Below, in pieces: positions 6,180 to 63,000 of a DNA stretch of 64,000 nucleotides. The DNA lies in contig JAQUWD010000008.1 of NCBI GenBank assembly GCA_028693055.1, positions 5,768 through 69,767 on the forward strand. The letters are read 5' to 3'. How positions within the stretch are numbered: position 1 is the stretch's first letter; each line of letters opens with the position of its first letter. The notes beneath the pieces were generated by a model that did no database searches, was not told where the DNA came from, and saw nothing but the letters and a program-made list of their open reading frames with translations. The stretch comes from Eubacteriales bacterium (GTDB lineage: Bacteria; Bacillota; Clostridia; Christensenellales; Aristaeellaceae). A program made the position numbers and the translations under genes.

Positions 6180-6183
6180 CGCT

Positions 6184-7668: not shown

Positions 7669-7730
7669 ATCCGCATCCTCCAAACAGCAAAATTGTGATG
7701 AAAAAAGCAGCGTCGCCGCTGCATCATCGG

Positions 7731-41924: not shown

Positions 41925-41967
41925 ATCAACTCCTTCTTGGGTCGTTTGGTAAATGCGAAGTTTGCCT

Positions 41968-42283: not shown

Positions 42284-43451
42284 GGGGAATCGCAAACCAT
42301 TCCGCAGGCATTCCCATTTCGTGGGCTTCCTCGTCAGGAATCGGCCATTCCTGTTGCTCCACATGAATATCAGATTCGGGAAGCCTTAATGGTGTGTCCG
42401 CGTCGAGGTCTTTTTCTACGACCCTTTCCCAGCCCTTTTGCCTGCCATATCGAATGCCGAAATTGCGTGGGTTGCTGAATGCCTTCCATTCGTCCCGAAG
42501 CGAATTGCGCATGATGTCGCCGATTTCGCGCAGCTCCCAGCGTTTCGGCTCGTCAAAACGATGCAGCGCTTCTTCAAACAGCTGGCGCGTGCAAACCTTG
42601 TCGCCGTCGTAACGCTCGAGATACTCAATAATTTTTCCGGCTTTCTCGTCTTCGGGCATGCAGTCGCGCTGCACGTTCAGGAGCTGATCGCGGATTGCCT
42701 TATCGAATTTCATGCTGTACTTGCCGCTGTGATAGATTGCCATCGCCTCTGCCCAAACTTGCAGGATGTAAGCACGGGATGCGGCCTCGTCGTCCAGAAT
42801 GTGAACCTCGGGCGGCTCGACCTCCGTCATCACAGGCAAGAAGCGACGATTGCCTGCACGATCCAGTGGCAAAAAATCCATCGAATTGGACGTGCCACCA
42901 AACACGCATTGGCGCGGTCTGTCCTTCGGTTGCGCCTCGTAAGGAGTACGATAGGTGTCCTTCTGCCGAGAGAAGAACGAGCGGCTTTCCTCAACGCTCT
43001 TGGCGTTGTTGGTGGCGAGCATTTCGCTCATTTCGATGATCCAATGCCCCTGCAAGCGCTGGAACACCTTGTCGTCATCCAATCGCCGGATGTCATCGCT
43101 GAACCAGTCGTCGTTGATCGCCAAAAAGCGGAAGAAGGTCGATTTGCCAATGCCTTGACCGCCGACCAAGCAAAGAATTTCCTCATACTTGCAGCCTGGC
43201 TTGAACACGCGCAGAATCGCGCCCAGCAGAAAATGCAAGAGCATGGCCTCGGTGTAATCATCCTCGGCAGCGCCGAGAAAGTGCCGAAGACAGCTACGGA
43301 TGCGAGGCGTACCATCCCAGACGAGCCCCTCTAACACTTCACGAATTGGATGAAAACGATAGTCGCTGGCAACCACCTTGAGCGCACGATCCAGCTTTTT
43401 GTCACTGCCCAGTCCATAATATTTTTCGATGTAGAGGATCAAGTAGTTCAT
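42240..43451 (-). CDS. VirE (virulence-associated protein E)-family P-loop primase/helicase-like protein, probably 5'-truncated
   Basis: Walker A LVGGQGIGKSTFF and Walker B WIIEMSEM. FHPIREVLEGLVWDGTPRI is typical of the family. There is no SD before the ATG at 43451. An SD-preceded ATG lies 39 nt upstream in another frame. Confidence 0.7.
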   Translation of the reverse strand: MNYLILYIEKYYGLGSDKKLDRALKVVASDYRFHPIREVLEGLVWDGTPRIRSCLRHFLGAAEDDYTEAMLLHFLLGAILRVFKPGCKYEEILCLVGGQGIGKSTFFRFLAINDDWFSDDIRRLDDDKVFQRLQGHWIIEMSEMLATNNAKSVEESRSFFSRQKDTYRTPYEAQPKDRPRQCVFGGTSNSMDFLPLDRAGNRRFLPVMTEVEPPEVHILDDEAASRAYILQVWAEAMAIYHSGKYSMKFDKAIRDQLLNVQRDCMPEDEKAGKIIEYLERYDGDKVCTRQLFEEALHRFDEPKRWELREIGDIMRNSLRDEWKAFSNPRNFGIRYGRQKGWERVVEKDLDADTPLRLPESDIHVEQQEWPIPDEEAHEMGMPAEWFAIPRQPTVDNEVRDLAS

Positions 43452-44304: not shown

Positions 44305-44580
44305 ATGGGATTCGTCTGGGAAACACCGGAGGAGATCAATCAAGCTTTGGCAAAGCGACTGGTTCGCATTCGCAAACGGCAGTGTCTCTCACAGCAGCAG
44401 TTGAGTGAAAAAAGCAACGTGAGCTTTGGAAGTATCAAGCGTTTCGAAACAAGCGGACAGATTTCACTGCTGTCATTGACGAAGCTCTGCGTCGCTTTGG
44501 ACTGCGTGAACGAGATCAAGAATCTGTTCACCGATGTTGCGTACAACAGCATCGAGGAGGTTTTCCGTGAAAGAACGTAA
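44305..44580 (+). CDS. hipB: XRE-family HTH antitoxin (HipB-like)
   Basis: HTH LVRIRKRQCLSQQQLSEKSNVSFGSIKRFE. Overlaps the hipA-like start. Confidence 0.75.
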   Translation: MGFVWETPEEINQALAKRLVRIRKRQCLSQQQLSEKSNVSFGSIKRFETSGQISLLSLTKLCVALDCVNEIKNLFTDVAYNSIEEVFRERT

Positions 44581-45688
44581 GTTGGAAGTGTTTATGGAAG
44601 ATCGACACGTTGGGACGTTGGCGGCAACCGACGATCATCGTGTCGCCTTTGCCTACTCCGATGCCTGGCTCGAGAACGGCTTTGCCATCAGTCCATTTTC
44701 TCTGCCGGTGGAGCGAAAAGTGTTCGTCCCATCGGGACAGGCTTTTCATGGCATGTGGGGTGTATTTGACGACAGTTTGCCGGACGCTTGGGGTCAACTG
44801 CTGGTTGACCGTATGCTCAAAAGCCGCGGGCTGGATTACGCCACCCCTTTGGAGCGCCTAGCAATCGTAGGCAACAGCGGCATGGGCGCACTTCGCTATC
44901 ATCCCGCATGGGAGGCGCATCAGGAAGCAGAACCAAGTGATCTGGATGAACTTTCCGCGCAATGTCAAGCATTGCTGAGCCATGCGGATGTTTCCGATTT
45001 AGACGATCTTTTTCAGATGGGCGGAAGCTCCGGCGGTGCTCGTCCGAAGATCATGACCGATTCATGGGTCATCAAATTTCCTGCGTCAGGCGACATGGTG
45101 GATGTGGGATTGATGGAAAAAGAATACATGGATTGCGCCGCGGCGTGCGGGATTATCGTTCCCGAAACGAAGCTCCTTCCTTCCAAGAAATGCAGCGGAT
45201 ATTTCGCTTGCCGTCGGTTTGATCGTGAAGAAGCGGAAGGACGCATAACTGCGCGTCCTATGCTGACAGCAGCCGCCATTTTGGAGACAGACTGGCGCAC
45301 GGTCGCGATGGACTATCATACCCTCATGAAGCTGACGCGCATCCTATCCCGAAGCAACGAAGCGGATCTCCGGCAGATGTACCGCGTGATGTGCTTCAAT
45401 GTGTTCACGCACAACCGAGACGATCACGCGAAGAATTTCAGCTGGATTTATGATCCCCAGCTGGATTGCTGGCATCCGTCGCCTGCCTACGATCTCACAT
45501 GGAGCACTACTTATTTTGGCGAGCATACCACGACCGTTGACGGTAACGGCAAAGACCCCGGGATGAACGAGCTGCTTGCCGTGGGGAAAGTAGCGGGAGT
45601 TGCCCCCAAAGACTGCCGACGGATGGCGGACGAAGTCAAAGAGACGGCAGGTTATCTGGCTGAAAAGTATCAAGGGATGCGTTCATAA
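44567..45688 (+). CDS. hipA: HipA-family serine/threonine kinase toxin (full length, N- and C-terminal domains)
   Basis: N-terminal coupling domain (LEVFMEDRHVGTLA...FAYSDAW), GGSSGGARPK P-loop-like motif, and catalytic NRDDHAKNFS. GAGGAGG RBS before the GTG at 44567. Confidence 0.85.
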   Translation: MKERKLEVFMEDRHVGTLAATDDHRVAFAYSDAWLENGFAISPFSLPVERKVFVPSGQAFHGMWGVFDDSLPDAWGQLLVDRMLKSRGLDYATPLERLAIVGNSGMGALRYHPAWEAHQEAEPSDLDELSAQCQALLSHADVSDLDDLFQMGGSSGGARPKIMTDSWVIKFPASGDMVDVGLMEKEYMDCAAACGIIVPETKLLPSKKCSGYFACRRFDREEAEGRITARPMLTAAAILETDWRTVAMDYHTLMKLTRILSRSNEADLRQMYRVMCFNVFTHNRDDHAKNFSWIYDPQLDCWHPSPAYDLTWSTTYFGEHTTTVDGNGKDPGMNELLAVGKVAGVAPKDCRRMADEVKETAGYLAEKYQGMRS

Positions 45689-47220: not shown

Positions 47221-47697
47221 TCACATCACCAGTTGATTGGTCTTGCGCAGCGCCTTGGCGGGAATGGCTTCCTTGAGCTTGAGCAGAATGTTCATGGGCC
47301 GCTCGCCTGTGTGGCTGACATACGCCGCTTCGCCAAAGAACGTATACGGGCTGGCTCCGTAGCCCTTCTCCTGCTTGTATTCACGAACGAACAGCAAGAT
47401 GCGCGTGCCCATTTCCGCATGGTGGATGTAACGCCGACCTGTGGCGCTGTCCGCCGACGTGGTGGACTGGCTCTGCCAATGAAACAGCGTGGAGCTGACG
47501 GAATAATCGTTGTACATGGTCGTGGGCGAATAATCCTTGTCGGCCTTGTTCAGCGTCACGAAGAACACGTCCGTCTTTTGCTCCGGCAGCCATTTCACGC
47601 CTTCACGAACGGTGGACGGCTTCATGAAATCCAGCGCCACCAAGGCTTGATCGCGGGTGTAGGTGCAATGCACATCCAGCGGACACGCCCCGCCCAA
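47221..47697 (-). pseudogene. C-terminal remnant of a DUF3427-containing (helicase/nuclease-associated) protein
   Basis: VREGVKWLPEQKTDVFFVTLNKADKDYSPTTMYNDYSVSSTLFHWQSQSTTS...LLFVREYK matches the DUF3427 core. That domain normally sits at the end of ~900-1000-aa proteins, and no upstream helicase part is present. Confidence 0.6.
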
Positions 47698-47822
47698 CGG
47701 TATGACAGCGTCCGCTCCGCATTGAATGAGTTTGCAGATAGCCTTTCTACCGACGAAAAGCTATTGATTCTTGCGAACCTGATGCTCCATGTGAACGAGT
47801 GAACAAGAGAGGAGGAAATACG

Positions 47823-48965
47823 ATGATTTATTTGGACAATGCTGCTACCACCGGTCAGAAGCCCGAAGGAGTTATTGACGCTGTTACAGAAGCCATGCGA
47901 TCACTTTCGGTCAATGCTGGTCGTGGAAGCTATGCAGCCGCACGGAAAGCCGTCCAGATCATAGAAGAATGTAAAAGCAATCTGTTTGAAATCGGAAGAA
48001 TGAATGCGGGGTATCATGTGTATTTCGCTCCTAGCGCCACCATTGCACTCAATCAGATCATTCTGGGGGAAGAATTTGACTGCTACTCCAATATCTATGT
48101 TACTCCCTTTGAACATAATGCTGTCATGCGCCCGCTTAACGCAGTATGCACCAAGACAAATGCGAAGCTACGTGCGTTACATTTCAATCGAGAGGATTGG
48201 TCTCTTGACACGGCTGATGCTGAGGCAGCCTTTCTAGCCTATCCGCCGAAGTATGTCTTTCTCTCGATGGTGAGCAATACCACTGGCTATGTATTGCCTG
48301 TCAAGGAGATCGTGGACATGGCGCATACGTATGGAGCAAAGGTCATCGTGGATTGTGCACAGGCCTTTGGCGCAGTGAATGCTGATCTTTCTGCGATTGG
48401 TGCTGATGCTTATGTATTTGCCAGCCACAAAACGCTTTATGGCCCTTATGGCATTGCCGGTTTCATCGTGAAAGATACCTTCTCGGTCAGCCCTGGTCTG
48501 TTCGGCGGAACGGGTTCGGATTCACTCAATTTGGTGATGCCATCTGCTAATGCAGGAGGCCTTGAACCCGGAAGCGCCAATATTCCCGCCATCTGCGGAT
48601 TGAACGAAGCTGTCAAATGGCTTCAAAGAACCGGTGTACAGGCCATTCAAGCGCACGAAAGCGGGCTCGTAGGCAGATTGGTCGAGGGCTTGCAGCGCAT
48701 GGAAAAGCTCCATCTGTATGTCCCCCCAACGGATCGACACAGCGGCATCGTAGCTTTTACCGTCGATGGGTATCAAAGTCATGATGTCGGCGAGATCCTC
48801 GATGATGAATTTGACATTGCTGTACGAACCGGCTATCAATGCGCTCCACTCGTACACGATTGGCTGGGTTCGAAGCCCTATGGCGGTATCGTCAGAGCTT
48901 CTGTAAGCTACTTCAATACAAAGGATGATATGGACTGTTTGATCGAAGCACTTAAGACATTATGA
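47823..48965 (+). CDS. Class-V aminotransferase-fold PLP enzyme, cysteine desulfurase-like (SufS/CsdA-type)
   Basis: IYLDNAATT start, PLP-lysine motif ASHKTLYGPYG, GGTGSDS and EPGSANIPAICGL blocks, and a candidate persulfide cysteine in RTGYQCAPL. GAGGAGG RBS. Confidence 0.85.
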   Translation: MIYLDNAATTGQKPEGVIDAVTEAMRSLSVNAGRGSYAAARKAVQIIEECKSNLFEIGRMNAGYHVYFAPSATIALNQIILGEEFDCYSNIYVTPFEHNAVMRPLNAVCTKTNAKLRALHFNREDWSLDTADAEAAFLAYPPKYVFLSMVSNTTGYVLPVKEIVDMAHTYGAKVIVDCAQAFGAVNADLSAIGADAYVFASHKTLYGPYGIAGFIVKDTFSVSPGLFGGTGSDSLNLVMPSANAGGLEPGSANIPAICGLNEAVKWLQRTGVQAIQAHESGLVGRLVEGLQRMEKLHLYVPPTDRHSGIVAFTVDGYQSHDVGEILDDEFDIAVRTGYQCAPLVHDWLGSKPYGGIVRASVSYFNTKDDMDCLIEALKTL

Positions 48966-48979
48966 GAGGGTGAATTACG

Positions 48980-50653
48980 GTGACAGCTTCCTATGCGAAT
49001 CCGTTTGTGGACTATCTGAACTCTTTGCACAACGGAAATGCTGCCAATCAAAATGCGATCGGTGAGATGCAGATCTCGTCGCCTTTTTTCGATGACACGC
49101 AGGTCAAGCGGCCTTTGGTCAGCTTCCTTCAAGCCAAGGTCGAGAAGGGAGATTTCATCATTCTGACCGGTCATGCGGGGGACGGCAAAACGACACTGCT
49201 TGCGCAGGTGCTTGATGCAATAGGCTCGAAGCAGCAGCGTCTGCTGCCTTTTGCGGATATTGATTGTGGCTGTCAGCAAGTTCACTATGTCAAGGATTTC
49301 AGCGAGTTGACAAAGGTTGAGCAGGATTCCGAACTGCAGAGCTGCTTTTCTCGCCGCAATGCTTCGATACTGATTGCTAACACAGGCCCGCTTTTGAGCG
49401 CTTTCAATAGGCTCGATAGTAATGGTCATGAGGCGGACCTACTGGATCTGATGGATCTCCCCTGCGGTGGTTATCTTAGCGTGGAGGAGAACGGCAGGGC
49501 ATTCGTGCTGAACATCGCCCGTGTAGACAATACAGACTTTATCAAACCCTACTTGCAGAACCTCGTTGCCACGCCGCATTGGTCTGCTTGCGCAGCATGT
49601 CCGAGTGCCGAAAGATGCCCGATCTACTTCAATCGAAATATGCTCATTGAAAAAATCGATCGGGCCTCGGGCTTTATTGAGAAGGCATACATCTGGTTGC
49701 AAGAATACGATCATCGTGCCACCATTCGTCAGATCACTGCACACTTGACCTATGCCATGACAGGGGGACTTCATTGTAATAGTGTAGCTTCGCATTGTGC
49801 GGACAGTTGGCGATACCGTTACCTTTTTTCAAATCTGTTCTTTGGCTGTGAAGGAAACGACTTCAGAGAGGGTGCAAAGCAGATCCATGGTATTCGACTC
49901 GTTACGGAGGCAAAATTCGACATCCGCCCAACCTGTGTGGACTATGAGCTGTTTAACAAGAATCAATATGAGGCGTTCTATCCTGCCCCTTTAGCTGGGG
50001 TTTTTGATGAAGCCTTCAATCAGCATAGGCACCGTGATACCGGTATCGTTCAAACGATACTGAAGCGTGCTTATCTTTTCTTTGGGCAAAACACGAATGA
50101 AGTGGATCAAGCGCAGGAAAAAGAAACATTTTCAGAATGGTTTGACCTGTATTTGCGGATCCGTAACAAGGGTGAAAAGCCCAAAGATTCGTTTAAAAAA
50201 TCGATCTGCAGCGCGATTAACACTTTGTTTGTGGGGGAGACGCTCGGAGAATTCTCCGATCATATCGATTTGACATTGCGGCGAAATAATGAGCAAACAA
50301 GTAATGTGCAACTATTGTCCGGGCGAATCGCGATCGACAATATTGCCCTCAAGTGTGAACCCTATGACACCGTCTCGGGACAAAAGCAATATCATCTCGT
50401 TTTCTGTACCGGTAAAATGAAATACCGAATCTCTTTGCCATTACTGAATTACTTCTGCGAGATCTATCACGGCATCATCATCACAGATATTGATCCCATG
50501 CTGAGCAACGGTATTGATAGCCTCAAAGCGCAGCTGCTTTCAAACGATCAAACTACGGTTGATGAGAACGAAGTGCCACTTGTATTTCTATCCGGTAACA
50601 GATGGGTCAAACGAAAGCTCATCATCGGCGAGCATAGCATTGATCATGATTGA
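48980..50653 (+). CDS. P-loop NTPase with Cys cluster (DptF/DndF-like by size, position and N-terminal Walker A)
   Basis: Walker A ILTGHAGDGKTTLL near residue 70. CAACPSAERCP cluster. GTG start 14 nt after the desulfurase stop, with a GAGAGGG RBS. Confidence 0.6.
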   Translation: MTASYANPFVDYLNSLHNGNAANQNAIGEMQISSPFFDDTQVKRPLVSFLQAKVEKGDFIILTGHAGDGKTTLLAQVLDAIGSKQQRLLPFADIDCGCQQVHYVKDFSELTKVEQDSELQSCFSRRNASILIANTGPLLSAFNRLDSNGHEADLLDLMDLPCGGYLSVEENGRAFVLNIARVDNTDFIKPYLQNLVATPHWSACAACPSAERCPIYFNRNMLIEKIDRASGFIEKAYIWLQEYDHRATIRQITAHLTYAMTGGLHCNSVASHCADSWRYRYLFSNLFFGCEGNDFREGAKQIHGIRLVTEAKFDIRPTCVDYELFNKNQYEAFYPAPLAGVFDEAFNQHRHRDTGIVQTILKRAYLFFGQNTNEVDQAQEKETFSEWFDLYLRIRNKGEKPKDSFKKSICSAINTLFVGETLGEFSDHIDLTLRRNNEQTSNVQLLSGRIAIDNIALKCEPYDTVSGQKQYHLVFCTGKMKYRISLPLLNYFCEIYHGIIITDIDPMLSNGIDSLKAQLLSNDQTTVDENEVPLVFLSGNRWVKRKLIIGEHSIDHD

Positions 50654-50671
50654 GGAAGGAGATGCAGTAGC

Positions 50672-52165
50672 GTGTTTCCACCAAACGCTGACATAGGCCG
50701 AAAAGAGGATAACCTAGGCATCGCACTCTTAGGAAATCGTATTTACTGTGATCAGACACTCGTAGAATACCTTATTGAGTTTCTACTTGTATTTACGAGC
50801 GCAAAAAATGCAGACGGCGATGGCAGACTTCGCTTTCATTCTGCTTCAGAGATCTCTATCAACAGGATGACCTATCACGTTGCACCGAACACCGCTTTGC
50901 GTCGTTTCATTTTCTACAACAATAGTAAGCAGGAAAGCCGCTCAACAATCGATACAAAAGCGAATGCAGAACTATGGAAGTGCCTGCGCGATACGACACA
51001 GAACGGTGAAGAGGACATTGACTTGATCCACGATCTGCTACATAGCTATGCTATTGTTACCAGAAATCGCGGATGGTACGCACAAGCACTTCTCCCCGTT
51101 GCGCCCGAGTTGCTCTTGACAGACCTGCAGGGGATCAAGAAACGTCAAAAAGCAGATTGGCCATTATTTGATCCGCAAGTGGACAACGGATTTGATTTTG
51201 ATAAGCACAATTTTCTTGCTCGAGGAGGACAAGTCCTTTATCTTCATCTGCTCCAAGGGCTGCTGCATTCGGACGAGCAAGAGAAAGATGATCGGGAAGT
51301 GATTGAGAAGCTGCTTCGAAATATGCTACGTTGCTCGGGCGGAGAGGTTGGACTTCTCGCAAATTTTGTTCAAAACGAATGGGAATATCATCGGGAAGAT
51401 GTAGATTTTAGGCTACGTGCATTTAACATGGGGTATATTCAAGATGCTTTTGACATCCGTTCGGCTCGGTTTGTTCAAGAGATTCGCTGCTTCCTGAGCT
51501 GTGATATCCATCCGATCGCGAGAATTGAACTGCTTTCTCAGGGGCTGATATTGGCGTTGCTCCGAGCGATTCAGATCGTTGCTGCACACAAGATCGATCC
51601 TTCAGGGAGAGAGCCTCTTTGGGTCATGGATATGAGCGAGATGGGCGGCACATCAAATATTGCAAAGCTGGCTGCTGCAAGCTACGCGACAGCCTATGAT
51701 TCCTTTCTTTCGGCCATGTCGATTCTATTCGATGAGCGTTCATTCGATGGTGATAAACGATTTGAGATGCTGCAAAAGAGCAAGCAGAACACCGCAGATG
51801 TCTTCAAAAACCTTGGGAAAGAAATGAAGCTGGTCATTCCCCCGCGAGGTGGACACGAAAGATTCTCCCTGTCTGAGGCACTTGCACGGTACCTTGTTCT
51901 TGCCATCGTAAAGCCCGGCAGAAAGATCACGCTCGATACCTTTCTTGACCGTTTGTATGATCATTACCGAATCATCATCGCACCTGCACAGTACCGAAGA
52001 GCCATTGCTGACGGGAGCTGGAAAGACAGTGAAAACATGGCCGACTATTTCGAGATCAATGCGCGCTGTTTCCAGGACTTCTTGAAGCAGTGTGGCTTCG
52101 TTCGAGATCTTTCCGATGCAACAGCAATTGTTGAAAACCCATATAAGGAGGTAACACTCGAATGA
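50672..52165 (+). CDS. Hypothetical 497-aa protein (DptG/DndG-like by position; no motif recognised)
   Basis: Long ORF with a GGAAGGAG RBS. 4-nt ATGA overlap with the next ORF. Confidence 0.55.
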   Translation: MFPPNADIGRKEDNLGIALLGNRIYCDQTLVEYLIEFLLVFTSAKNADGDGRLRFHSASEISINRMTYHVAPNTALRRFIFYNNSKQESRSTIDTKANAELWKCLRDTTQNGEEDIDLIHDLLHSYAIVTRNRGWYAQALLPVAPELLLTDLQGIKKRQKADWPLFDPQVDNGFDFDKHNFLARGGQVLYLHLLQGLLHSDEQEKDDREVIEKLLRNMLRCSGGEVGLLANFVQNEWEYHREDVDFRLRAFNMGYIQDAFDIRSARFVQEIRCFLSCDIHPIARIELLSQGLILALLRAIQIVAAHKIDPSGREPLWVMDMSEMGGTSNIAKLAAASYATAYDSFLSAMSILFDERSFDGDKRFEMLQKSKQNTADVFKNLGKEMKLVIPPRGGHERFSLSEALARYLVLAIVKPGRKITLDTFLDRLYDHYRIIIAPAQYRRAIADGSWKDSENMADYFEINARCFQDFLKQCGFVRDLSDATAIVENPYKEVTLE

Positions 52166-54087
52166 AGCAGCTGGCAGATTATATCTTCAAAGATATTGTT
52201 CACAGCCTCCGGCGTAATAGCGATAAACAAGTGATTCGCGTGGATGGCTTCGAAAATCTCGGGTTGTACCTTCGTTTGTGCAGGAAGACTCAAGAGTTGT
52301 GCGCAAAGCAAGGCTATTCCTTGATCGCGAAGCTGAGCTGCAACAAATTTGAGCAGTTTGTTGCAGCCGGGAAATGGCCTGCCGAAGTATCCGCAATGCG
52401 CATGAACGATTGGGTGGATGAAGAGGATCATATGACGAGCTATCGGAACATGCTGCCCGATAGCGGGAAGCGGCTGGTCGTTTTACTGCTCGGTACAGAT
52501 ATGGTGGATGACAAAGGCGGCCTCAATGACTTTTTCGCCATTACACCTAACAAGATTGATGTGGAGATCGGAAATAAGTTTTCCAAGCTCATCAGCCAAG
52601 AACTACATGATGCCTTTGACAATGCGCAGATTGACGATGTGGTGGACCGTTTCTTTGGGGATCTGTTTTCTTGTACACCCAAAAACCTTTCGCAGGTCAG
52701 CGATATTCTTGACGGCTGGCTCAATGAGACGCCCACAGTAAAAGAAGCCATGGTGGATTTGTTCACCATGCTACCCCAATGGAATATTCCCATGATACAA
52801 GATGCAGCAGAGAAACTTACGCCTGTAAAGTTCATCTCTGCTCGCGGAAAGAGCAGTCTGGTACTGAAAGCTAGTAACTTTATTCGCGGAAAAACGTATG
52901 CGAGGATCACCAAATCCACGATAGCAAATATGAAAAAGAAGTTTGAACAGTACCGTGGTGAGGATGGTAAGCAGCCGGGAAAATACTATATGGAGTATCC
53001 TACCGGGCAAAAAATTACTTCTCTTGCCCAGCTTGAAGCAGCTGCAATATCTTATGTCATGGGCGACCATAGCGAAGATTTATGTGACACGCTCATTCAT
53101 ACAGATTTTTCGATTCTTGATGACGTCCTGAACATCAAGTTGACCACGAAAAAGTCGACAGACAAGATCATCAAGGTCGAAGGAATGCCGCTATCAGTCT
53201 TTCTGATGGCATTTCTAAGCGCGCTTGATGACAACGAGATGGGAATCGATGCCGTTAGGTTCAACTGGCAGCAGGCTAGGCTTTGTGGCATTCCTTCTAA
53301 TGTGGAAGTTGCCGACGCATCCGAAAAAGACGCCCTTCTGCTTGACTCGTGGAATGCGATCACTCGCTTCACAGGCGGCATCGGCGAATACATCTCCCAA
53401 GAAAACTGGCAAGGGCACGATGGCGAGCCTATTTCGCTCTGTATGGAGCCGTCCGATTTTTTCCTCCCCAGTGCAGGAAAAAGTCTCGTCGAGTCTGGGT
53501 TGGTGACGACCGGATCAGGCGCAAAGCATAAGATCAACTTTACCATTGAAGCACTGTGCAACGACACAACCATCGCCACAGAGGATTTTGTTTGGGAGAT
53601 CGACCCAATGGAAGCATGGCTCCTTGCTTTCCGAGATCTGGATGACATGCCTGAGGAGGAAACGTGTTATCTTCCTTTTGAGACGTCTGCTGAGATGAAC
53701 ACGGCCTATTCGCTGAAGGATGAAGACGGTTTTGCGTACTGGATCACCCATACAGATGTGAAACCTTTAGTTGGAAATAGCAGCCTTTGGAATACGCTCG
53801 ATCGCGAGTTGCAGCAGGCTGAGGAGGATATGGAGCAAGCACGATTCTTTAAACTGGGGAAGTGTTTCCAAAACTTCAGAAAACAAGTGATGAAAGAAGG
53901 GTTCTTTGCTAGCATCAACAGCTCCGCCAGCATTTTTTTAAACGAGTATCTTGCATTAGTCGATCACATAGCAACCTGTCCGGTATATGTGGGAAAACTT
54001 CACACTCTCGTTGGAAAGGAAAGATCGTCCAGCACTATGCCATTGCGGGGCAGTTGCCGATCAATCCCTTCAAGCGTCAGCCGCTGA
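52162..54087 (+). CDS. Hypothetical 641-aa protein, probably the N-terminal part of a DptH-like/HerA-like ATPase
   Basis: AAGGAGG RBS. No catalytic motif recognised. The last ~30 residues look non-native, and the ORF overlaps the next one in a different frame. Confidence 0.55.
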   Translation: MKQLADYIFKDIVHSLRRNSDKQVIRVDGFENLGLYLRLCRKTQELCAKQGYSLIAKLSCNKFEQFVAAGKWPAEVSAMRMNDWVDEEDHMTSYRNMLPDSGKRLVVLLLGTDMVDDKGGLNDFFAITPNKIDVEIGNKFSKLISQELHDAFDNAQIDDVVDRFFGDLFSCTPKNLSQVSDILDGWLNETPTVKEAMVDLFTMLPQWNIPMIQDAAEKLTPVKFISARGKSSLVLKASNFIRGKTYARITKSTIANMKKKFEQYRGEDGKQPGKYYMEYPTGQKITSLAQLEAAAISYVMGDHSEDLCDTLIHTDFSILDDVLNIKLTTKKSTDKIIKVEGMPLSVFLMAFLSALDDNEMGIDAVRFNWQQARLCGIPSNVEVADASEKDALLLDSWNAITRFTGGIGEYISQENWQGHDGEPISLCMEPSDFFLPSAGKSLVESGLVTTGSGAKHKINFTIEALCNDTTIATEDFVWEIDPMEAWLLAFRDLDDMPEEETCYLPFETSAEMNTAYSLKDEDGFAYWITHTDVKPLVGNSSLWNTLDRELQQAEEDMEQARFFKLGKCFQNFRKQVMKEGFFASINSSASIFLNEYLALVDHIATCPVYVGKLHTLVGKERSSSTMPLRGSCRSIPSSVSR

Positions 54088-54893
54088 ATATTCCTGGGCT
54101 TCCTGAGGGAATGCTGGAGCAATCGACCAACGTTGCAAGCCGATTTTCTGCGATCATGAAGCACGTATATGCCTTTGGCGAGCAACAATCCTCAGCGCTT
54201 TATCAAGCATGCAAAGAAGGTATTGACCATTTTGGAGATCAGATGGACTTCGAGAAGCTGCGGCAGCTGCTAGGGGGACAAACCAGCACATATTCCAAGA
54301 CTGTCTTATCCAAAATGCAGCAGCTTTTTGACCTTAACCTGTTTGATACGCAGCATGCCTTTGATTGGTCCAAGATCACACAGCGTGATGGAAAGGTAAC
54401 AGTCATCCAGCTCACGAGTCTTGATCGAGAGATCCAAACCGTCATTACCGAGATGTTGATGTGGGATGCATGGTACAGTCTCGTGAAGTATGGCGACAAG
54501 TCAAGACCTTTCGTTGTTGTGCTTGATGAAGCTCAAAACCTTTCTATTAGCGATGGTTCCCCTGCGCAAAAGATCCTGCAGGAGGGACGGAAATACGGGT
54601 GGTCGGCATGGTTTGCTACACAGTTTATGAAGGGTGCATTGTCGTCGGACGAGATCTCCAGATTGCAGCAGGCGGCTGAAACGCTGAATTTCAAACCCTC
54701 CGCAGAGGAGATCGGGTCTGTGGCATCTATGCTTTCGGATAGCAACACATCTGCCTCAGAATGGACCGAGATCATCAAACAGATGCAGAAGGGGCATTGC
54801 ATCGTAAAGGGTGATCGCATTCGTCCTAACAATACATTCGGTGCTGCGCCTGCAGTGCTTGTGAAGGTGAGTAGCTTTGAAGAAAGAAATTGA
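54054..54893 (+). CDS. HerA/FtsK-like (DUF87-type) ATPase C-terminal module without a recognisable Walker A
   Basis: Walker B PFVVVLDEAQNL and EGRKYGWSAWFATQ (sensor/Arg-finger block), then GHCIVKG. No ATG or SD at its 5' end. The frame is open from 53913. Confidence 0.55.
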   Translation: MPINPFKRQPLNIPGLPEGMLEQSTNVASRFSAIMKHVYAFGEQQSSALYQACKEGIDHFGDQMDFEKLRQLLGGQTSTYSKTVLSKMQQLFDLNLFDTQHAFDWSKITQRDGKVTVIQLTSLDREIQTVITEMLMWDAWYSLVKYGDKSRPFVVVLDEAQNLSISDGSPAQKILQEGRKYGWSAWFATQFMKGALSSDEISRLQQAAETLNFKPSAEEIGSVASMLSDSNTSASEWTEIIKQMQKGHCIVKGDRIRPNNTFGAAPAVLVKVSSFEERN

Positions 54894-55677
54894 CTTCGGT
54901 GTAAACTTCCATCAGACATTCCCTCCGACGCCTGCCTATATTGGCCGCATTCTAGCGATTGCAGAGGGCAAAAAGATGTCATCTCGTGAGATATCTGATC
55001 TAACAGGCATTCCACAAGGTGAGTCCTCCGGCAAGGTTGTTCCCCATCTCAAGTACGCTGCCTATATGGGATTGATCGAGCCGGATGTGACGATCCCGAC
55101 GCGAACCCCACTCGGGGATATTGTACTTCAGGAGGACAGATCATGCAGCGAGGCCTTGACCCAATGGCTGATGCACAGTAATCTGACATCCTCTACAGGC
55201 GCACCCATGTGGCATTTCCTTATTCGGGAGTTGCTGTTTCAAAATCGTGAGGGCACCACCAAGGAATACTTGTCTATGCAGATGCAAGCAGTATTCAAGA
55301 CGGAGAAGTATACCCCCGTATTGACCACATACAATGAGTTTTCCAGCATGACATACCTATCTGTTGATAAACCAACGGGCAAAGTATCGATCTTTCCTCA
55401 GAGAATCGAACGTGAACTTCTTTACCTCTATGGCTATTCACTGATGCACGAATGGGATGCAAGATTCCCAAGCACACCTGAGATTACTGTCTACGAAATG
55501 AATGGTTTTGCCTGCGTTACCTGCTTCGGCTTCACGGATAATCAATGGTTTGACGTGCTAGAACAGCTGTCTGCACTAGAAATCATACGCATGAATAAAC
55601 AGTTGTCACCTTACACAATTGTTCACCTTACATCCGCACAGACTCTTGTCCCAAAGCTTTACTCTTTACTGATCTGA
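54877..55677 (+). CDS. DUF4007-like winged-helix protein (SspB/PbeA-like by architecture)
   Basis: N-terminal FHQTFPPTPAYIGRIL...MSSREISDLTGIPQGESSGKVVPHLKYAAYMGLIE resembles the DUF4007 N-terminal pattern. Apparent TTG start that overlaps the previous ORF by 17 nt. Confidence 0.5.
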   Translation: MKKEIDFGVNFHQTFPPTPAYIGRILAIAEGKKMSSREISDLTGIPQGESSGKVVPHLKYAAYMGLIEPDVTIPTRTPLGDIVLQEDRSCSEALTQWLMHSNLTSSTGAPMWHFLIRELLFQNREGTTKEYLSMQMQAVFKTEKYTPVLTTYNEFSSMTYLSVDKPTGKVSIFPQRIERELLYLYGYSLMHEWDARFPSTPEITVYEMNGFACVTCFGFTDNQWFDVLEQLSALEIIRMNKQLSPYTIVHLTSAQTLVPKLYSLLI

Positions 55678-55695
55678 CACTTGGAGGAAGCATCC

Positions 55696-58600
55696 ATGAC
55701 ACAGTTGAAGGATCTAGTCGTTTTCCGTGATGATCTCTACTTTGAGGGTGCTGTTCAAGCAGACTGGTTCTATCAGTCGCGTCAAGTGGAAGCAGTAGCA
55801 AGGAGTTTCGTCTTTCACGGACCAAAGAACCATGCTGTCTCCCAGAATGATTTCGGCGGCCACAGCTTGCTTGATACCGCCTCTTTCACACTACGCCTTG
55901 CGCAAAAGATGGACAGCCCGGAGGACTATAACCCATTGACCCTTGCAATTGCCGGTTATGGTACGGGTAAATCACACCTTGCGGTGACATTGTCTACCCT
56001 TTTCAGCGGTGAGCAATGGAAGCCGGTGCTTCACAACAAGATCCTGCAAAACATCGCCCGAGCTGATACAGGCATTGAAGCGCAGCTGCGTCCATTGGTT
56101 CGCAAACCCAAACTCGTTCTTACGCTGAACGGTATGCGTGATTTCAACCTGCATTATGAATTGCTTCGCACCGCAGAAAAAGCCTTGAAGCTCTACGGAT
56201 CCGACCTTGATGTACTGGCGAAGCTCAACAAGGTGAAAGAAACCGCCACGACCTTTATCGAACGCTCCTATGAGCTGCTAGAGGAGCGGTTTGTGCAAAC
56301 GGCGAAAAGCAAGGGAATCCAGGTTGCGGGAGAGCAGCTGAAGCAGCACCTACTTCAATCGCTTGACTGTGAGGCCGGTGTCGAGTTCGACGTGATCAAC
56401 GCGGTCTATATGGACTTCAACGGACACCCCATACGTATGGATGAGGGCGTGTCGGCGAGTCTTGTGCTTGATACGCTTTTGCAGGAGTGTTGCGGGCTTC
56501 ACGGCCAATTTGATGGACTCGTCATTCTGTTTGACGAATTCGGACGCTTCCTTGAATATGTTTCGGCAAATCCTACAGCAGCTGGTGATTCAGCGCTCCA
56601 GCAGATCTTTGAGTCTGTGCAGAATGCGGCGGGCGAAATCCAATTCGTAGGGTTTATCCAATCGGATATCAAGAGCTACCTACAGCGTGTGGATAAATCC
56701 AGTAATATCAGCCGCTATATTGACCGATTTGATGCCAGCGAAAAAATTTATCTCAGTTCAAACCTCGAAACGATCTTCGCAAATCTGCTAGAGAAGAAGG
56801 ACCGAGCAGCTTATGATCGTGAGGTCACGGCGCGTTTTCGTGCTGATGAGCATAAACAGCACGCTTTGTTCGACGATTTGCAAAAATGGGTTCCTCTGCA
56901 TGGAATCTGGAACAACTGGAGTGACTACAGCCGTATCATTCTTGAAGAGATCTATCCGCTTCATCCCATCTCGACATACTTGCTCTGCAATTTGACAAAC
57001 TGGCTGCAAAGTCGATCGTCCTTAACGCTGCTCAGTGAAAAAGTCCGATTGATCGGAAATCAGATTGTGGATGCTTCATCCCCTCTGCCGCTGATCTATC
57101 CAGTCGAATTACTGAAAGGCGCTTTCTTTAGTGAGCTTCTCAATGCAGAGGAGCAAGGAAGGCAAAATAGCCAGTTCTGCATTCTTCTCAATAGTATCTA
57201 TCGAAAGCTGGATACGAAACTCACAGACGAAACGCGGAATGTCCTGCTTGCAAACTTGATTTTGCGGATCTGCCGCTTTCACTTCGAGACGCGAGTAGAA
57301 CTCTTATCCGCTATCGGTGAATGCTCAGGACTGTCCTCCACACAAGTTGATGCTGCACTTCAGCTTCTGGAGAATGAGTACGCCGTATTGAGCTATGATG
57401 ATCGGCTGATCTGCTTTGACTTCATTGCAGATTCGGTTGGCGCAAATGAATTCCGAAATTTCTTAAAGACTGCGCAGAATCGTCGTGCTTTCCACCCGGA
57501 GATGCTGGCCCAAAATGATATTCTGGATTTCGCCGAGACCCTAAAGCCGATTGAGACAGACTTCGGTTCCAAGCATGGCATTCAAACGAGAGAATGGCAA
57601 TTCGTGCAGCAGATCGAACCGGTCCAAAGCATGGACAGCAGGACTGTCAGCAGCGTTTATAAAGAGCTTCAAACGCGAACCTTGCCAAACACAGAGCGGG
57701 GCATGTTGCTGTGGGTCTATCTGCCCAAAGATGCAGACATCATGAAGCTCGACCAGCTTATCACATCCGTTCAAGCCGTTGAGCATGATCAGGCGCTTGT
57801 GGTTTTTGTCCTAGATGATTCTGACAACGCTTTGCAGGAGGCGATTCTTGCATATCGTGTCCTGTCCGATATGCAACCTGAGGAAAAGCTTCACTTCAAG
57901 CATTTCTACGATGATGCTTTAGTGAAAGCACAGGAGCGCGTTCGCAGCATATTCGCTGCCCTGAAGCAGCAGCGCAAAGCCATTACAGCAGAAGGCATTA
58001 CGCCTATCGACAAGCGCCTGAAGGTATACCTCACATCGATCTTTGAAAATGTGTATCCGAAGGCGATATCTTTTGACTTTGATGGCTTTGATGCAAAGGG
58101 CGCAAATGGCGCTCCATACAAGAACTTCTGCACGATCATGAAATGGATCTTGATGGATGGGATGTCTTATGTTGCACTTAAGTCGCAGTCATCTGATGTA
58201 AAGAACCGCGTCGACTCGCTTCTTGGCCCGCATGGACTATTCTCATGGCGTGCACTCAACAGTGATTATAAGATTGTTTCCCCCACAAATGGAGCGGTTG
58301 CCAAAATCTTTGCTTCGCTTGAGAGCATACTGAATACAAAAAGAGTTCTTTCGTTCAGACAGGTTTCAACGCTGCTGACTTCCGCCCCTTATGGTATGAA
58401 TGAGTATGTAGCATTTATGTTGTTGGGATTATTTAACGAACTGTTTTCATATACAACCCGGCTTGTGCTAAACGATTCTAAGTATTCTACTCATACCTGG
58501 GCTGAGGAAGTGCTACAGGACAAAAAGTTTGATGTGAAACTCTTTGGCAAAACCAAACTTTTGCTGGTTGATGCAGAAGAAACTACAGGAAAGTATCGTA

Positions 58601-59928
58601 ATGTTTACAGCAGAATAAAGAAAAACTCGTATTTTATACGCGTGGAAGCTTTACGAGAGGAACTCGATAAGTTAAAGCTAGAAGATCCTGTTCCAGAAGC
58701 ATTAGAGGCAGAGGATGACCTCGCTTCCATGTTGCTTGCCGACGGGGACAAAGCAAGAAGGTATTATGTGGAGCAGATCATGACGATCGATGGAAATTTA
58801 CAGAAAGCCAAGCGCGTTTTAAACCCCTATAATGCATTGTTGGTTGCGCTTGATGCTCAGAAGCTCTCGATGGAAACATATTCAAACGGGCGCTATTCCT
58901 ATGCACCCGAGCAAACAGAGGAGATGACGGCCTATGTTGAAGCTGCCAAAAAAATAGCTTCTGCAGCATTCGCTGACGGATGGGTCAAACGTTACTATTG
59001 CGCAGACGCAGAAAAGATCGGGAGCTATAAACACTTTGCCGAAAAAGCCTGCGATCTGTTTAACCGATATGGCTATGCAAGGGAAGCGCTTGAACTTACT
59101 GCAATCGTAACAAAGGAAGTTGCAAGGATCCAATTGCTGATTGATCAGGAAGCATTTATTAATTCCTGTGAAAATTATCTATTGACCAGTCAGGTTCGGG
59201 TAGGCATGACACAGAAGAACCTCGTCGCATTTCAAGAGCAGGGAAATGAACTTGTTAAAGGCTTTGAGAAGTTTGATTTTGAAGTGGATAAGCGCTTTGT
59301 CGATCTGCGACTTCGTGTACTAAAGCAGATTGACGTGCTAAATGCCGCTCTTGTGGAGTTTAAGGAAAAACTGGATAGCATTTGGAATGCGGCATATGAC
59401 ATCTCTTGCCTTGATGATGTGCGACATGTGCATGCGCGGATCGAAGCAGTACTCGGAAGTGGACTTACGGACCGAGACCGAGACGATTTGGAGAACATTG
59501 ACCATGAAATGACGAAATTCATCGAATACATGACCGAATTTGTTGGGCGTGAGTATTCACGCGATGAACTTCAGACAGCCTATCAAGAAGCTCAAACGCT
59601 GTTTGAAGGCGGCGAACTGGATCTGTCCCAAGTGCTTGATAAATCCTATGCTGATATGCTGGAAAAGATGGATAGTCAAGAAAAGCAATGGATCGATCAT
59701 TACCTGACGATCTCTCCTTCCGAGATGGGACAACAGGAGCTGGATAAATGGAAGCGAGACACACTCCCACTTCCGGTTTTCCTTTCAAGCGACACTGCAA
59801 CAAGACATCAAGCAATGCTCGATCATGTGGAAACAGAATTGGCGAAAAGGCGGGTAAGCTATATTACTATGCTATTTAGTCAGCTTTCTGATGAAGAGAA
59901 AAAGATGGTTCTTGCTCAAATCCAATAA
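55696..59928 (+). CDS. 1410-aa BrxC/PglY-like P-loop ATPase with long helical C-terminal region
   Basis: Walker A IAGYGTGKSHLAV (compare GFFGSGKSH of BrxC) and Walker B LVILFDEFGRFLEY. GGAGGAAG RBS before the ATG at 55696. Confidence 0.65.
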   Translation: MTQLKDLVVFRDDLYFEGAVQADWFYQSRQVEAVARSFVFHGPKNHAVSQNDFGGHSLLDTASFTLRLAQKMDSPEDYNPLTLAIAGYGTGKSHLAVTLSTLFSGEQWKPVLHNKILQNIARADTGIEAQLRPLVRKPKLVLTLNGMRDFNLHYELLRTAEKALKLYGSDLDVLAKLNKVKETATTFIERSYELLEERFVQTAKSKGIQVAGEQLKQHLLQSLDCEAGVEFDVINAVYMDFNGHPIRMDEGVSASLVLDTLLQECCGLHGQFDGLVILFDEFGRFLEYVSANPTAAGDSALQQIFESVQNAAGEIQFVGFIQSDIKSYLQRVDKSSNISRYIDRFDASEKIYLSSNLETIFANLLEKKDRAAYDREVTARFRADEHKQHALFDDLQKWVPLHGIWNNWSDYSRIILEEIYPLHPISTYLLCNLTNWLQSRSSLTLLSEKVRLIGNQIVDASSPLPLIYPVELLKGAFFSELLNAEEQGRQNSQFCILLNSIYRKLDTKLTDETRNVLLANLILRICRFHFETRVELLSAIGECSGLSSTQVDAALQLLENEYAVLSYDDRLICFDFIADSVGANEFRNFLKTAQNRRAFHPEMLAQNDILDFAETLKPIETDFGSKHGIQTREWQFVQQIEPVQSMDSRTVSSVYKELQTRTLPNTERGMLLWVYLPKDADIMKLDQLITSVQAVEHDQALVVFVLDDSDNALQEAILAYRVLSDMQPEEKLHFKHFYDDALVKAQERVRSIFAALKQQRKAITAEGITPIDKRLKVYLTSIFENVYPKAISFDFDGFDAKGANGAPYKNFCTIMKWILMDGMSYVALKSQSSDVKNRVDSLLGPHGLFSWRALNSDYKIVSPTNGAVAKIFASLESILNTKRVLSFRQVSTLLTSAPYGMNEYVAFMLLGLFNELFSYTTRLVLNDSKYSTHTWAEEVLQDKKFDVKLFGKTKLLLVDAEETTGKYRNVYSRIKKNSYFIRVEALREELDKLKLEDPVPEALEAEDDLASMLLADGDKARRYYVEQIMTIDGNLQKAKRVLNPYNALLVALDAQKLSMETYSNGRYSYAPEQTEEMTAYVEAAKKIASAAFADGWVKRYYCADAEKIGSYKHFAEKACDLFNRYGYAREALELTAIVTKEVARIQLLIDQEAFINSCENYLLTSQVRVGMTQKNLVAFQEQGNELVKGFEKFDFEVDKRFVDLRLRVLKQIDVLNAALVEFKEKLDSIWNAAYDISCLDDVRHVHARIEAVLGSGLTDRDRDDLENIDHEMTKFIEYMTEFVGREYSRDELQTAYQEAQTLFEGGELDLSQVLDKSYADMLEKMDSQEKQWIDHYLTISPSEMGQQELDKWKRDTLPLPVFLSSDTATRHQAMLDHVETELAKRRVSYITMLFSQLSDEEKKMVLAQIQ

Positions 59929-60315: not shown

Positions 60316-61263
60316 TCAAAAGATGCCAGCCCGCGCTTCCATCAGCTCCACAAGCTGTTCCGCCATCTCACTCGGCAGCGTGGATTCGCTGCAAAGCGTA
60401 ACCCACGTCGGCACACAGCTAACAAGCTGCCTGATCATCTTCTCCGCTGTCTTGCGGGCAATGCCGCAGGTCTCCGCAAAAACCAGAAAATCCTTTCGAT
60501 GAAGATGCTGCTTCTTTCCATTCATCGTCAGCGCAAATTCCTCGATATCCTCCGGGAGAATCACGTTCACGGGGAGCAGATCATAAGCTGGAGAAAGCAC
60601 GTACTCCCGGCTTCCCGGTGCTGTTTCGATGAGCGAGAAGTTCTTGAGGTGCATATCCGAGTTGCCGGTCAGAAAAGAAAAAACCAGCCGCATGAACAGC
60701 TCCGTCAGATCCAAGCCTTTTCGCGCAGAATAACGCTCGATGACTTTCGCACAGCGCTCATAGGAGCCACGGTATTTATCGCGCGTCAGGCGAAGATCCA
60801 GCTGGCAGAAATCTTCCATAGCCAAGCGTTGAATGCCACCGTCAGCGGTTTTTACGCGGTCAACACGCTTCGTGATGTACGCCACATGGTCGCCAAGCTG
60901 GATCAGCGCATGAGGAACAGTTGCAATGCCCGCCTTGTCAGCCATCGACATCACAAGGTGCTCGGCTTCGGGCATGCAGCGGTATTCGTCTACCTGCGGC
61001 TTCAGGATGAAGCCAGCGGGATAGTCCACGATGGTGAGTCTCGGATGCTGCTCTTCGGTCAGGTGAAGCGATAGTTTTTTCTGAACGCCGGGGACGGTGT
61101 AGCCCTTCGCGACGGATTGCGTTGCCAGCTGTCCCAGCGCATTGCTGGATAGATCGCTCTCCGGCAGAGTCTTTGTCCCGAAGAATTTTCTGATGCAGGC
61201 GGGATGCCAGCCTGACACAGCTCGTTCGGCTGATACTTCCTTACCGCAGCACAAGCACTTCAT
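60316..61263 (-). CDS. hipT: HipT-like kinase (HipA C-terminal kinase domain only)
   Basis: PGVQKKLSL, catalytic GNSDMHLKNFSL, and N-terminal CxCC...H..C. The ATG at 61263 overlaps the stop of the upstream gene (ATGA). Confidence 0.8.
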   Translation of the reverse strand: MKCLCCGKEVSAERAVSGWHPACIRKFFGTKTLPESDLSSNALGQLATQSVAKGYTVPGVQKKLSLHLTEEQHPRLTIVDYPAGFILKPQVDEYRCMPEAEHLVMSMADKAGIATVPHALIQLGDHVAYITKRVDRVKTADGGIQRLAMEDFCQLDLRLTRDKYRGSYERCAKVIERYSARKGLDLTELFMRLVFSFLTGNSDMHLKNFSLIETAPGSREYVLSPAYDLLPVNVILPEDIEEFALTMNGKKQHLHRKDFLVFAETCGIARKTAEKMIRQLVSCVPTWVTLCSESTLPSEMAEQLVELMEARAGIF

Positions 61264-61592
61264 GCGCCCACCTCCTGACGAATGCTGACATTGCCGATGC
61301 AGTCCTTGCATGCGAGAAGCAGCAAGCCAAAGCGGTCGGTTTGATCGATCTTCCAATTGTGCGTCACGACGTTCAGAAGCCAGCCCTCCGGGATCAACCC
61401 GTCAAAAAAGGGGAATAGCGTTGTTGAGGTGTAAGGCTCTGTGCGAAGCGGTAATGTCAGCGAAACAGGTGCGGCCTTGCCGCTTGCGAGGTAGGTTGCG
61501 TCATAAACAAACTCGTACCCCGCGTCTGTTTCGGAGAGGCGACCGGCATAGCTCTCATTCACAAAGACGCTGGCTGTTCGAAAAGCACTCAT
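61260..61592 (-). CDS. hipS: HipS-like protein (stand-alone HipA N-terminal subdomain)
   Basis: VFVNESYAGRLSE...YEFVYDATY...FFDGLIPEGW corresponds to the HipA N-terminal coupling domain as a separate 110-aa ORF. ATGA overlaps on both sides. Confidence 0.75.
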   Translation of the reverse strand: MSAFRTASVFVNESYAGRLSETDAGYEFVYDATYLASGKAAPVSLTLPLRTEPYTSTTLFPFFDGLIPEGWLLNVVTHNWKIDQTDRFGLLLLACKDCIGNVSIRQEVGA

Positions 61593-61816
61593 TTCTGCTC
61601 CTCTCTGCGACCAGGCACCGCTTCCATGCCGAACATGGCCAAGGCCTGATTCACCTTATCCATGCGAACGGTTTCCTTCCCTTCTTCAAGCTCGCGCACA
61701 AAGCGCAGCCCAAGCCCGGACCGCATGGCAAACTCGGCTTGCGTCAAACCGGCAGCCTTCCGCTCATGCTTGATATAAGCCGCAATGCTGTTTTTCCCCA
61801 ACCAGCTCACCTCCAT
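61589..61816 (-). CDS. hipB: XRE-family HTH protein (HipB of the tripartite module)
   Basis: HTH IKHERKAAGLTQAEFAMRSGLGLRFVRELEEG. ATG at 61816 is preferred over the TTG at 61855, which would overlap operator site 1. Confidence 0.7.
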   Translation of the reverse strand: MEVSWLGKNSIAAYIKHERKAAGLTQAEFAMRSGLGLRFVRELEEGKETVRMDKVNQALAMFGMEAVPGRREEQK

Positions 61817-61829
61817 ACATTGAATTTTA

Positions 61830-61924
61830 ATCCCTTTCGGGTATAAAGTCAACAAGCATAGAAAATTTCATCCCGAACGGGTATATTTTAATTTGTGCAA
61901 TTTGTATGGTTCCCGATCGGGTGT
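61830..61924. promoter_or_regulatory. Three operator-like imperfect palindromes with exact 40-bp phasing upstream of hipB-hipS-hipT
   Basis: ATCCCTTTCGGGTAT (61830-61844), ATCCCGAACGGGTAT (61870-61884) and TTCCCGATCGGGTGT (61910-61924). Confidence 0.55.
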
Positions 61925-62905: not shown

Positions 62906-63000
62906 CTACGAATCAAAAGGTCGTGGGTTCGAATCCCGCCGGGCTCACCATGAAGCAATCTTCGGATCGCTTCTTTTTTTGTGGTTTTTGGGGCAATTTT
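62906..63000 (+). repeat. attR: duplicated 3' part of tRNA-Arg plus terminator
   Basis: 95 bp identical to 40023-40117 except for one position. It lacks the 5' 32 nt of the tRNA, so it is not a functional tRNA. Confidence 0.9.

Follow-up and report, generated by a model that had tools for sequence, protein, structure and literature searches.

The DNA analysed here, called the window, is a 64-kb stretch of one metagenome-assembled genome (MAG) of a Eubacteriales bacterium (contig JAQUWD010000008.1), over which open reading frames (ORFs), sequence motifs, tRNA genes and matches to Pfam, PADLOC and NCBIfam were examined. The subject is a gene cluster at 47701-59928, very probably what recent decay has left of a nine-gene phosphorothioate (PT) defence operon of the Ssp type. 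A reading made from the sequence only had described the cluster as seven packed co-directional ORFs. The coordinates and the spacing (gaps of 14 nt and 18 nt, an ATGA overlap at 52162) were found to be correct, but the number of genes is six, because ORF4 and ORF5 are parts of one broken sspH. The left boundary given for the operon was also wrong, as 47701-47802 still codes for the last 31 residues of SspC. The features at the locus are as follows (ORF6 and ORF7 are called B′ and C′).

47221-47697, minus strand: C-terminal fragment of a DUF3427-domain gene (Pfam DUF3427 1e-22, profile positions 126-275 of 280 only)
47701-47802, plus strand: sspC 3′ remnant, last 31 codons (YDSV...LMLHVNE) and stop
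47799/47823-48965, plus strand: ORF A (sspA), 380 aa counted from the ATG
48980-50653, plus strand: ORF F (sspF), 557 aa
50672-52165, plus strand: ORF G (sspG), 497 aa
52162-54087, plus strand: ORF4, 641 aa as listed
54054-54893, plus strand: ORF5, 279 aa as listed
52162-54018, plus strand: sspH 5′ fragment, codons 1 to ~619 of ~1757; the listed ORF reads on to an out-of-frame stop at 54087
54018-54893, plus strand: sspH 3′ fragment in the other frame, residues ~1466-1757, the Walker-B half of a HerA/FtsK ATPase
54877-55677, plus strand: B′ (ORF6), 266 aa
55681/55696-59928, plus strand: C′ (ORF7), 1410 aa counted from the ATG

The deposited C′ protein begins at the ATG; the TTG-start form of 1415 aa, which is five codons longer, is not on record.

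Three genes of the known Ssp system have survived intact. The product of sspA is a class-V pyridoxal phosphate (PLP)-dependent cysteine desulfurase (Pfam Aminotran_5 2e-74), which matched SspA (5e-33) and DndA (5e-31) of PADLOC; the nearest NCBIfam model, TIGR01977, gave 324 bits and thus stayed under its cut-off of 377. Its start codon agrees with that of the orthologue in L019, a locus of the closest relative. The motifs (G/S)HKTLYGP and RTGxxC(A/S)P, which contain the PLP lysine and the catalytic cysteine, are conserved among the relatives. The sspF gene encodes a P-loop protein (PADLOC SspF 5e-34) with 77% identity to the L019 orthologue, and the relatives have kept its Walker A sequence GHAGDGKT(S/T) as well as its CxxC...C(H/P) cluster. 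SspG is 81% identical to its L019 counterpart and matched PADLOC SspG with 1e-26, over its C-terminal part only. Pfam gave no family for G, ORF4 or C′. The motifs quoted in the sequence-only reading were all present and conserved among relatives, and the PADLOC matches bore out its family calls for ORFs 1-3 and 5 (SspA/DndA-like, SspF, SspG and C-terminus of DndH/SspH).

The organization of the intact operon was deduced from related loci. Loci around three C′ homologues shared one order: a desulfurase of ~380 aa followed by proteins of ~560, ~500, ~1760 (DUF87), ~270 and ~1413 aa. Scanning species-representative genomes with an alignment of G yielded 12 loci, from Lachnospiraceae, Tyzzerella, Anaerobutyricum, Ruminococcus, Mobilitalea, Alkalibaculum and one Fusobacterium. 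In all G-scan loci with upstream DNA, three further genes were found ahead of the desulfurase, and the intact order is sspD-sspB-sspC-sspA-sspF-sspG-sspH-B′-C′. SspD of the relatives is a protein of ~570-580 aa with a PAPS_reduct domain (PF01507, 1e-29 to 1e-32), usually combined with a 4Fe-4S ferredoxin domain (Fer4_7); its best PADLOC match was BrxP (1e-82), and the SspD and DndC models also matched. SspB (~290 aa) is a canonical DUF4007/SspB protein (1e-83), and SspC (~1200 aa) matched PADLOC SspC with 1e-107.

The association of these three genes with sspA proved to be general. The closest relatives of the window detected in a search with F (77%, 75% and 60% SspF identity) all have sspD-sspB-sspC directly upstream of sspA. 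All 12 loci with sufficient upstream DNA had the full set, and a scan with a B′ alignment added 30 metagenome loci in which sspA is directly preceded by sspC or by its 3′ tail. Altogether, sspC directly preceded the desulfurase gene in all 42 related loci with visible upstream DNA. Rearranged versions were also seen: in L095 and L096 the F-G-H-B′-C′ block stands ahead of sspB-sspC-sspD, and in L091 and L092 sspD is upstream on the opposite strand. The nine-gene form in its intact state is thus widespread in the Clostridia sampled, many of which come from gut metagenomes, and one Fusobacterium has it as well. The isolates Intestinibacter bartlettii (L003) and Paludicola sp. MB14-C6 (CP133133.1) presumably carry it too, the loci retrieved from them beginning within sspA. 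The intact operon of the closest relative is flanked by genes encoding WYL-domain proteins (L019 682-1629; L006 15166-16155), one of them directly upstream of sspD. These may encode a regulator comparable to the BrxR-type WYL regulators of the BREX (bacteriophage exclusion) systems.

In the window the 5′ part of this operon is missing. In blastn comparison homology to L019 started at window position 47701, corresponding to L019 7614, which is within the L019 sspC gene (4224-7715). The segment 47701-47802 still codes for ...YDSVRSALNEFADSLSTDEKLLILANLMLHVNE*, which is the conserved C-terminus of SspC as judged by peptide comparison. The break of sspC coincides with the break of the DUF3427 gene, the junction being at ~47,700. 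These alignments indicate that a single deletion is what joined the interior of the neighbouring gene to the tail of sspC, with loss of sspD, sspB and ~97% of sspC. One deletion thus probably destroyed two neighbouring defence-type genes. No sspD or sspB remnants were detected in the window by tblastn, the sole matches being the paralogous ones to B′ and C′. A regular-expression search of six frames of the window and of the first six loci did not find any SGGxDS-type motif, so for the window the PP-loop motif is absent, as had been noted from the sequence. The PP-loop enzyme is missing because the operon was cut by a deletion; its absence is a scar and not a design feature.

The second lesion affects sspH. 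ORF4 gave no match at all in PADLOC, and ORF5 matched the C-terminus of PADLOC DndH (3e-45, model positions 1436-1640 of 1715). When the 1757-aa H protein of the closest relative (L006/L019 SspH) was compared with the window by tblastn, residues 1-639 aligned to 52162-54063 with 70% identity, and residues 1463-1756 of the L006 protein aligned, in a different frame, to 54006-54887 with 93% identity. A 2.54 kb segment located between the two sspH blocks in the relative is absent from the window, where the blocks meet at 54018 (blastn). Three-way alignment placed the junction at ~54,014-54,024, in an 8-10-nt GGnAAnAT microhomology which is found at both edges in the relative. The intact H proteins match the SspH model over residues 760-1228 and DndH/HerA over residues 1308-1733, and the Walker A sequence GGSGQGKT, located at ~1419 of the L019 protein, is deleted in the window. 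The lost part comprises residues ~620-1466 (~850 codons), including the region matching the SspH model and the HerA/FtsK Walker A, and the deletion shifts the frame. On these alignments, ORF4 and ORF5 are the two ends of one predicted ~1757-aa sspH product with an internal deletion and a frameshift. The change of frame explains why the two ORFs look like separate genes, and the 'overlap' at 54054-54087 is a consequence of the break.

Damaged sspH genes were encountered in other loci as well. The gene is split in L005 (3884-9163) and in L071/L073 (4697-9960), interrupted by a ~3-kb insertion in L040 (1769-9980) and fragmented in L094. The occurrence of such breaks in independent assemblies suggests recurrent inactivation of the restriction gene, although some of them may be due to sequencing error.

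The last two genes, B′ and C′, are intact. B′ matched Pfam DUF4007 with 1e-4, which is under the gathering score, and PADLOC SspB only weakly (2e-3). Alignment of profiles by hhalign with the SspB proteins of the same operons gave a probability of 98.4% (E 4e-15, 226 columns). C′, an AAA+ ATPase resembling SspC and BrxC, matched PADLOC SspC with 1e-15, in residues 274-439 only, and hhalign aligned residues 62-937 of C′ with residues 35-903 of SspC (99.8%, E 3e-30). The profile comparisons indicate that B′ and C′ are remote paralogues of SspB and SspC, and not the canonical sspB and sspC products. The identification of ORF6 and ORF7 as SspB and SspC, proposed from the sequence, was therefore right about the remote homology and wrong about the identity: the true genes lay upstream and were deleted. 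It follows from the two homologies that the intact operon carries two SspB/SspC-like pairs. A profile search with B′ against the PDB gave no match, and kinship of B′ to SspG/DndG was rejected (hhalign probability 0.4%).

A homologue search with C′ gave at least 993 proteins, the top match being the window's own deposited protein. Of the 120 best matches listed, nearly all have a length of ~1410 aa and no name, and those with named sources are from Clostridia; among the matches listed there was neither a Pfam family nor a protein name. The Walker A and B sequences (xYGTGKSH and hhFDEFG) are kept in all 32 sequences examined. A tblastn search of plasmids with C′ returned three weak matches of ~22% identity. 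The C-terminal ~500-510 aa are all-helical, consisting of long helices in the AlphaFold2 model (mean confidence, pLDDT, 89.7). Foldseek comparison of the 510-aa C-terminal model with the PDB found nothing below E 0.1, and a profile search with the extension against the PDB gave coiled-coil noise only. Since C′ is the sole over-length protein of the cluster, it was considered as a possible carrier of a hidden PP-loop or adenylating domain; this was rejected because the extension is helical and has no significant PDB match.

In all 13 loci from genomes or ENA, and in nearly all metagenome loci, sspH is followed by B′ and C′. They are kept also where the SspFGH genes between sspA and B′ are swapped for others. 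L089 (5204-9955) and L103 (3729-8480) contain PbeA-like (3e-247) and PbeC/DndD-like (1e-163) genes and a 172-aa ORF, and in L093 (5565-9971) genes for a helicase, a GHKL ATPase and a PLD nuclease stand in place of SspFGH. The site between sspA and B′ thus looks like an exchangeable position for restriction cassettes, with constant Ssp genes on either side. L099 (61-7885) has MatE and cytidylate-kinase-like genes downstream of its B′ homologue, and no C′; this locus, at a contig start, may be another decayed copy.

The literature on SspFGH, DUF4007 and SspABCD/SspBCD contained no description that we could find of a second SspB/SspC-like pair or of a nine-gene form. B′/C′ is the only part of the locus that may be new. 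We tentatively propose that this undescribed pair of the sampled, mostly Clostridial, Ssp operons could add a new component with a function in PT defence, either a second writer of site specificity served by the same SspD and SspA, or a scanner or reader by which the restriction cassette is directed or licensed; the proposal could well turn out to be wrong. Surveys anchored on dndC, sspD or sspBCD (PMC12914056, PMC8092258) would record the nine-gene form as an ordinary Ssp system and miss B′/C′. If the pair were needed for PT writing or for the control of restriction, it would bear on a question of the field, the discrimination of self from non-self by PT systems in which only a fraction of the sites is modified. 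The window keeps an intact B′/C′ pair within an otherwise dead operon.

The system most similar to the Clostridial operon is SspABCD-SspFGH, the PT defence system of Vibrio anguillarum FF-93 (Wang et al. 2021, PMC8092258). The two have their components in common: the cysteine desulfurase, an SspD of the PAPS-reductase type, SspB with DUF4007, the ATPase SspC and the restriction module SspF/SspG/SspH. The PADLOC models SspF and SspG recognise F and G, and SspH models recognise the middle of the intact H. The Clostridial operon differs in being a single nine-gene unit with its own sspA, in its long SspD (~570 aa), which has a ferredoxin-like 4Fe-4S domain and scores best with BrxP, in the HerA half of H, which scores best with DndH models, and in the conserved B′ and C′, which the published system does not include. 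The window copy differs further by the loss of sspD, sspB and sspC and by the broken sspH. What it has retained are SspA with both motifs, and SspF and SspG at full length relative to their orthologues. A PAPS-reductase/PP-loop SspD is absent across the 64 kb, the canonical DUF4007 SspB has been deleted with only the remote paralogue B′ left, the SspC ATPase of ~1050-1200 aa is reduced to its 31 terminal codons, and there is no intact SspH with a HerA/FtsK-like ATPase. Judged by this gene content, the locus is descended from the SspABCD-SspFGH system and is apparently the remnant of a member, not a functional one.

Other systems share some of these components. BREX type 4 (BrxP-BrxC-PglZ-BrxL) has been shown to make PT (Yuan et al. 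2026, PMC12914056). As in the Clostridial operon, a PAPS reductase, DUF4007 and a BrxC/SspC-like ATPase occur together in it, a cysteine desulfurase being optional, and SspD of the relatives is BrxP-like. The difference is that in the Clostridial operon DUF4007 is encoded by a separate gene, unfused to the PAPS reductase, and that the restriction arm is SspFGH. PglZ and BrxL were found neither among the seven window ORFs (PADLOC, Pfam) nor in the precomputed Pfam matches for the flanking genes of the relatives, and membership in BREX type 4 was ruled out on their absence. Membership in the Dnd family (DndABCDE-DndFGH) was likewise rejected: there was no PADLOC match to DndC, DndD or DndE among the seven window ORFs, and only the HerA half of H scored with DndH models. 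Rakesh, Aravind and Krishnan (2024, PMC10853773) described DndFGH and 'HerA/FtsK capture' systems with Orc/Cdc6 ATPases and triple winged helix-turn-helix (wHTH) proteins, in which HerA/FtsK proteins are coupled with Orc/Cdc6 ATPases and SspB/DndG-like wHTH proteins, and the ATPase was proposed to localise the restriction machinery on the DNA. This is the same theme as H plus C′ plus B′, and the closest published idea. However, the capture systems carry restriction endonuclease or inactive restriction endonuclease domains in or beside the Orc/Cdc6 protein, whereas C′ appears from the structural model to have no nuclease-like domain, at least within its C-terminal 510 aa. Moreover, the capture systems are not tied to an Ssp modification module, whereas C′ is always in an ssp operon.

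Going by the published work on Ssp systems, the intact operon would function as follows. SspA would take sulfur from cysteine as a persulfide, and SspD, an ATP pyrophosphatase of the PAPS-reductase type that has a 4Fe-4S domain, would insert it into the DNA backbone. SspB (a triple-wHTH DUF4007 protein) and SspC (an Orc/Cdc6-like ATPase) would select the sites, and SspF, SspG and SspH, as in the published SspFGH module, would damage unmarked DNA. B′ and C′, the divergent second pair, would probably be an extra DNA-scanning or site-localising unit. In the window copy, one deletion took sspD and sspB and left only 31 codons of sspC, and the microhomology-flanked deletion removed the middle of sspH with the Walker A of the translocase. 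With sspDBC lost and sspH broken, this copy can neither write the mark nor restrict DNA.

The divergence data bear on the timing. The intact genes have 66-81% protein identity to those of L019, and ~53-60% of the codons specifying the same amino acid differ in DNA. The C-terminal sspH fragment is 93.6% identical to L019 in protein and 78.9% in DNA, with 53% of the conserved codons differing. Both sspH fragments thus show the same codon pattern, that of purifying selection, as the intact genes. Since the fragments still bear this signature, they seem to have been under such selection for nearly the whole period after the two lineages separated, and the break appears to be recent. The joint loss of the two arms can be explained by the properties of the published system: SspFGH alone is toxic to PT-free cells, and all three of its genes are essential (PMC8092258). 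If sspDBC went first, selection would then favour losing sspH; if sspH went first, sspDBC would have become dispensable. The order could be either. The locus is a clear natural example of PT modification and restriction arms lost together.

Some points weigh against interpretation as a decayed operon. Our view is limited to 64 kb of one MAG, and an sspDBC set elsewhere in the genome is possible. The deleted form occurs in a single assembly (cluster sizes 1), and both junctions are known from assembly alone. Some residual function would also agree with the full length of five of the six genes, and we found no paper that tests this exact Clostridial gene set for PT modification.

The remnant might still be functional, sspA, sspF, sspG, B′ and C′ working together with an sspDBC or dnd set elsewhere, or B′/C′ alone keeping a defence or regulatory role. 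The five products have conserved catalytic and Walker motifs in addition to their full length, and the retention of B′/C′ beside other cassettes argues against a strict dependence on FGH. We nevertheless consider continued function improbable: the published system requires all three of its restriction genes, whereas the sspH of the window is without the ATPase Walker A, and the native 5′ end of the operon has been lost together with any promoter upstream of sspD. Recent deletions would leave the other reading frames intact anyway.

It is very unlikely that both deletions are artefacts of metagenome assembly or binning (chimeric joins) and that the true genome has the intact nine-gene operon. 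The source is indeed a MAG contig, and the deleted form was not seen in a second sample. However, the 8-10-nt microhomology at the sspH junction is far below assembler k-mers and is of the kind usual in biological deletions, the two truncated genes that meet at the 5′ junction are unrelated and have no repeat in common, and broken sspH recurs in the independent assemblies L005, L040, L071/L073 and L094.

Hardly tenable is a real new architecture, a sulfur-linked defence without any PP-loop/PAPS-reductase enzyme: the window indeed has no PP-loop motif or sspD homologue and five of its genes are intact, but homologous loci with visible upstream DNA carry sspDBC beside sspA, a 31-codon stump of sspC marks the breakpoint, sspH is broken, and C′, for all its length, shows no enzyme-like extra domain.

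The sequence-only reading had offered two interpretations of the locus. The synteny survey, in which a standard sspD adjoins the operon in homologous loci (an outcome that the reading itself had named as refuting novelty), disposes of a new architecture using mobilised sulfur in a different way, and the sspC stump, the broken sspH and the full sspDBC of the relatives speak for the other, a decaying Ssp-type system. The claim of sulfur mobilisation for defence without a PP-loop enzyme falls with the new architecture; what the integrative island carries is an Ssp operon that has been pseudogenised.

The island itself had been described correctly, as a tRNA-integrated element with two Hip modules (ARAGORN tRNA prediction, direct repeats and Pfam). 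It is bounded by 95-bp direct repeats with one mismatch, is ~22.9 kb in size, and has a G+C content below that of its flanks. Its other features are these.

39991-40067: tRNA-Arg(ACG), predicted by ARAGORN
40023-40117, plus strand: attL, the left direct repeat, including the 3′ 45 nt of tRNA-Arg(ACG) plus downstream sequence
40305-41264, minus strand: tyrosine integrase of the island (Pfam Phage_integrase 2e-12)
41658-43451, minus strand: HTH_17 excisionase-like gene and VapE-like (primase/helicase-associated) gene, adjoining the integrase
44305-45688: classical two-gene module of HipB (HTH_3) and full-length HipA (Couple_hipA and HipA_C), by Pfam
60316-61356, minus strand: kinase-domain protein (HipA_C 1e-47)
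61260-61592, minus strand: 110-aa protein consisting of the HipA N-terminal domain only (Couple_hipA 1e-26)
61589-61855, minus strand: HTH HipB-like gene
62906-63000, plus strand: attR, the right direct repeat, which pairs with 40023-40117

With its defence and toxin genes as cargo, the ~23-kb island is reminiscent of small integrative elements of the mobilisable or satellite-like kind. Its second Hip module (60316-61855, minus strand) looks like a three-gene module and not like a broken HipA: the kinase gene probably starts at an ATG near 61263 that overlaps the stop codon of the gene before it, and the layout resembles HipB-HipS-HipT.

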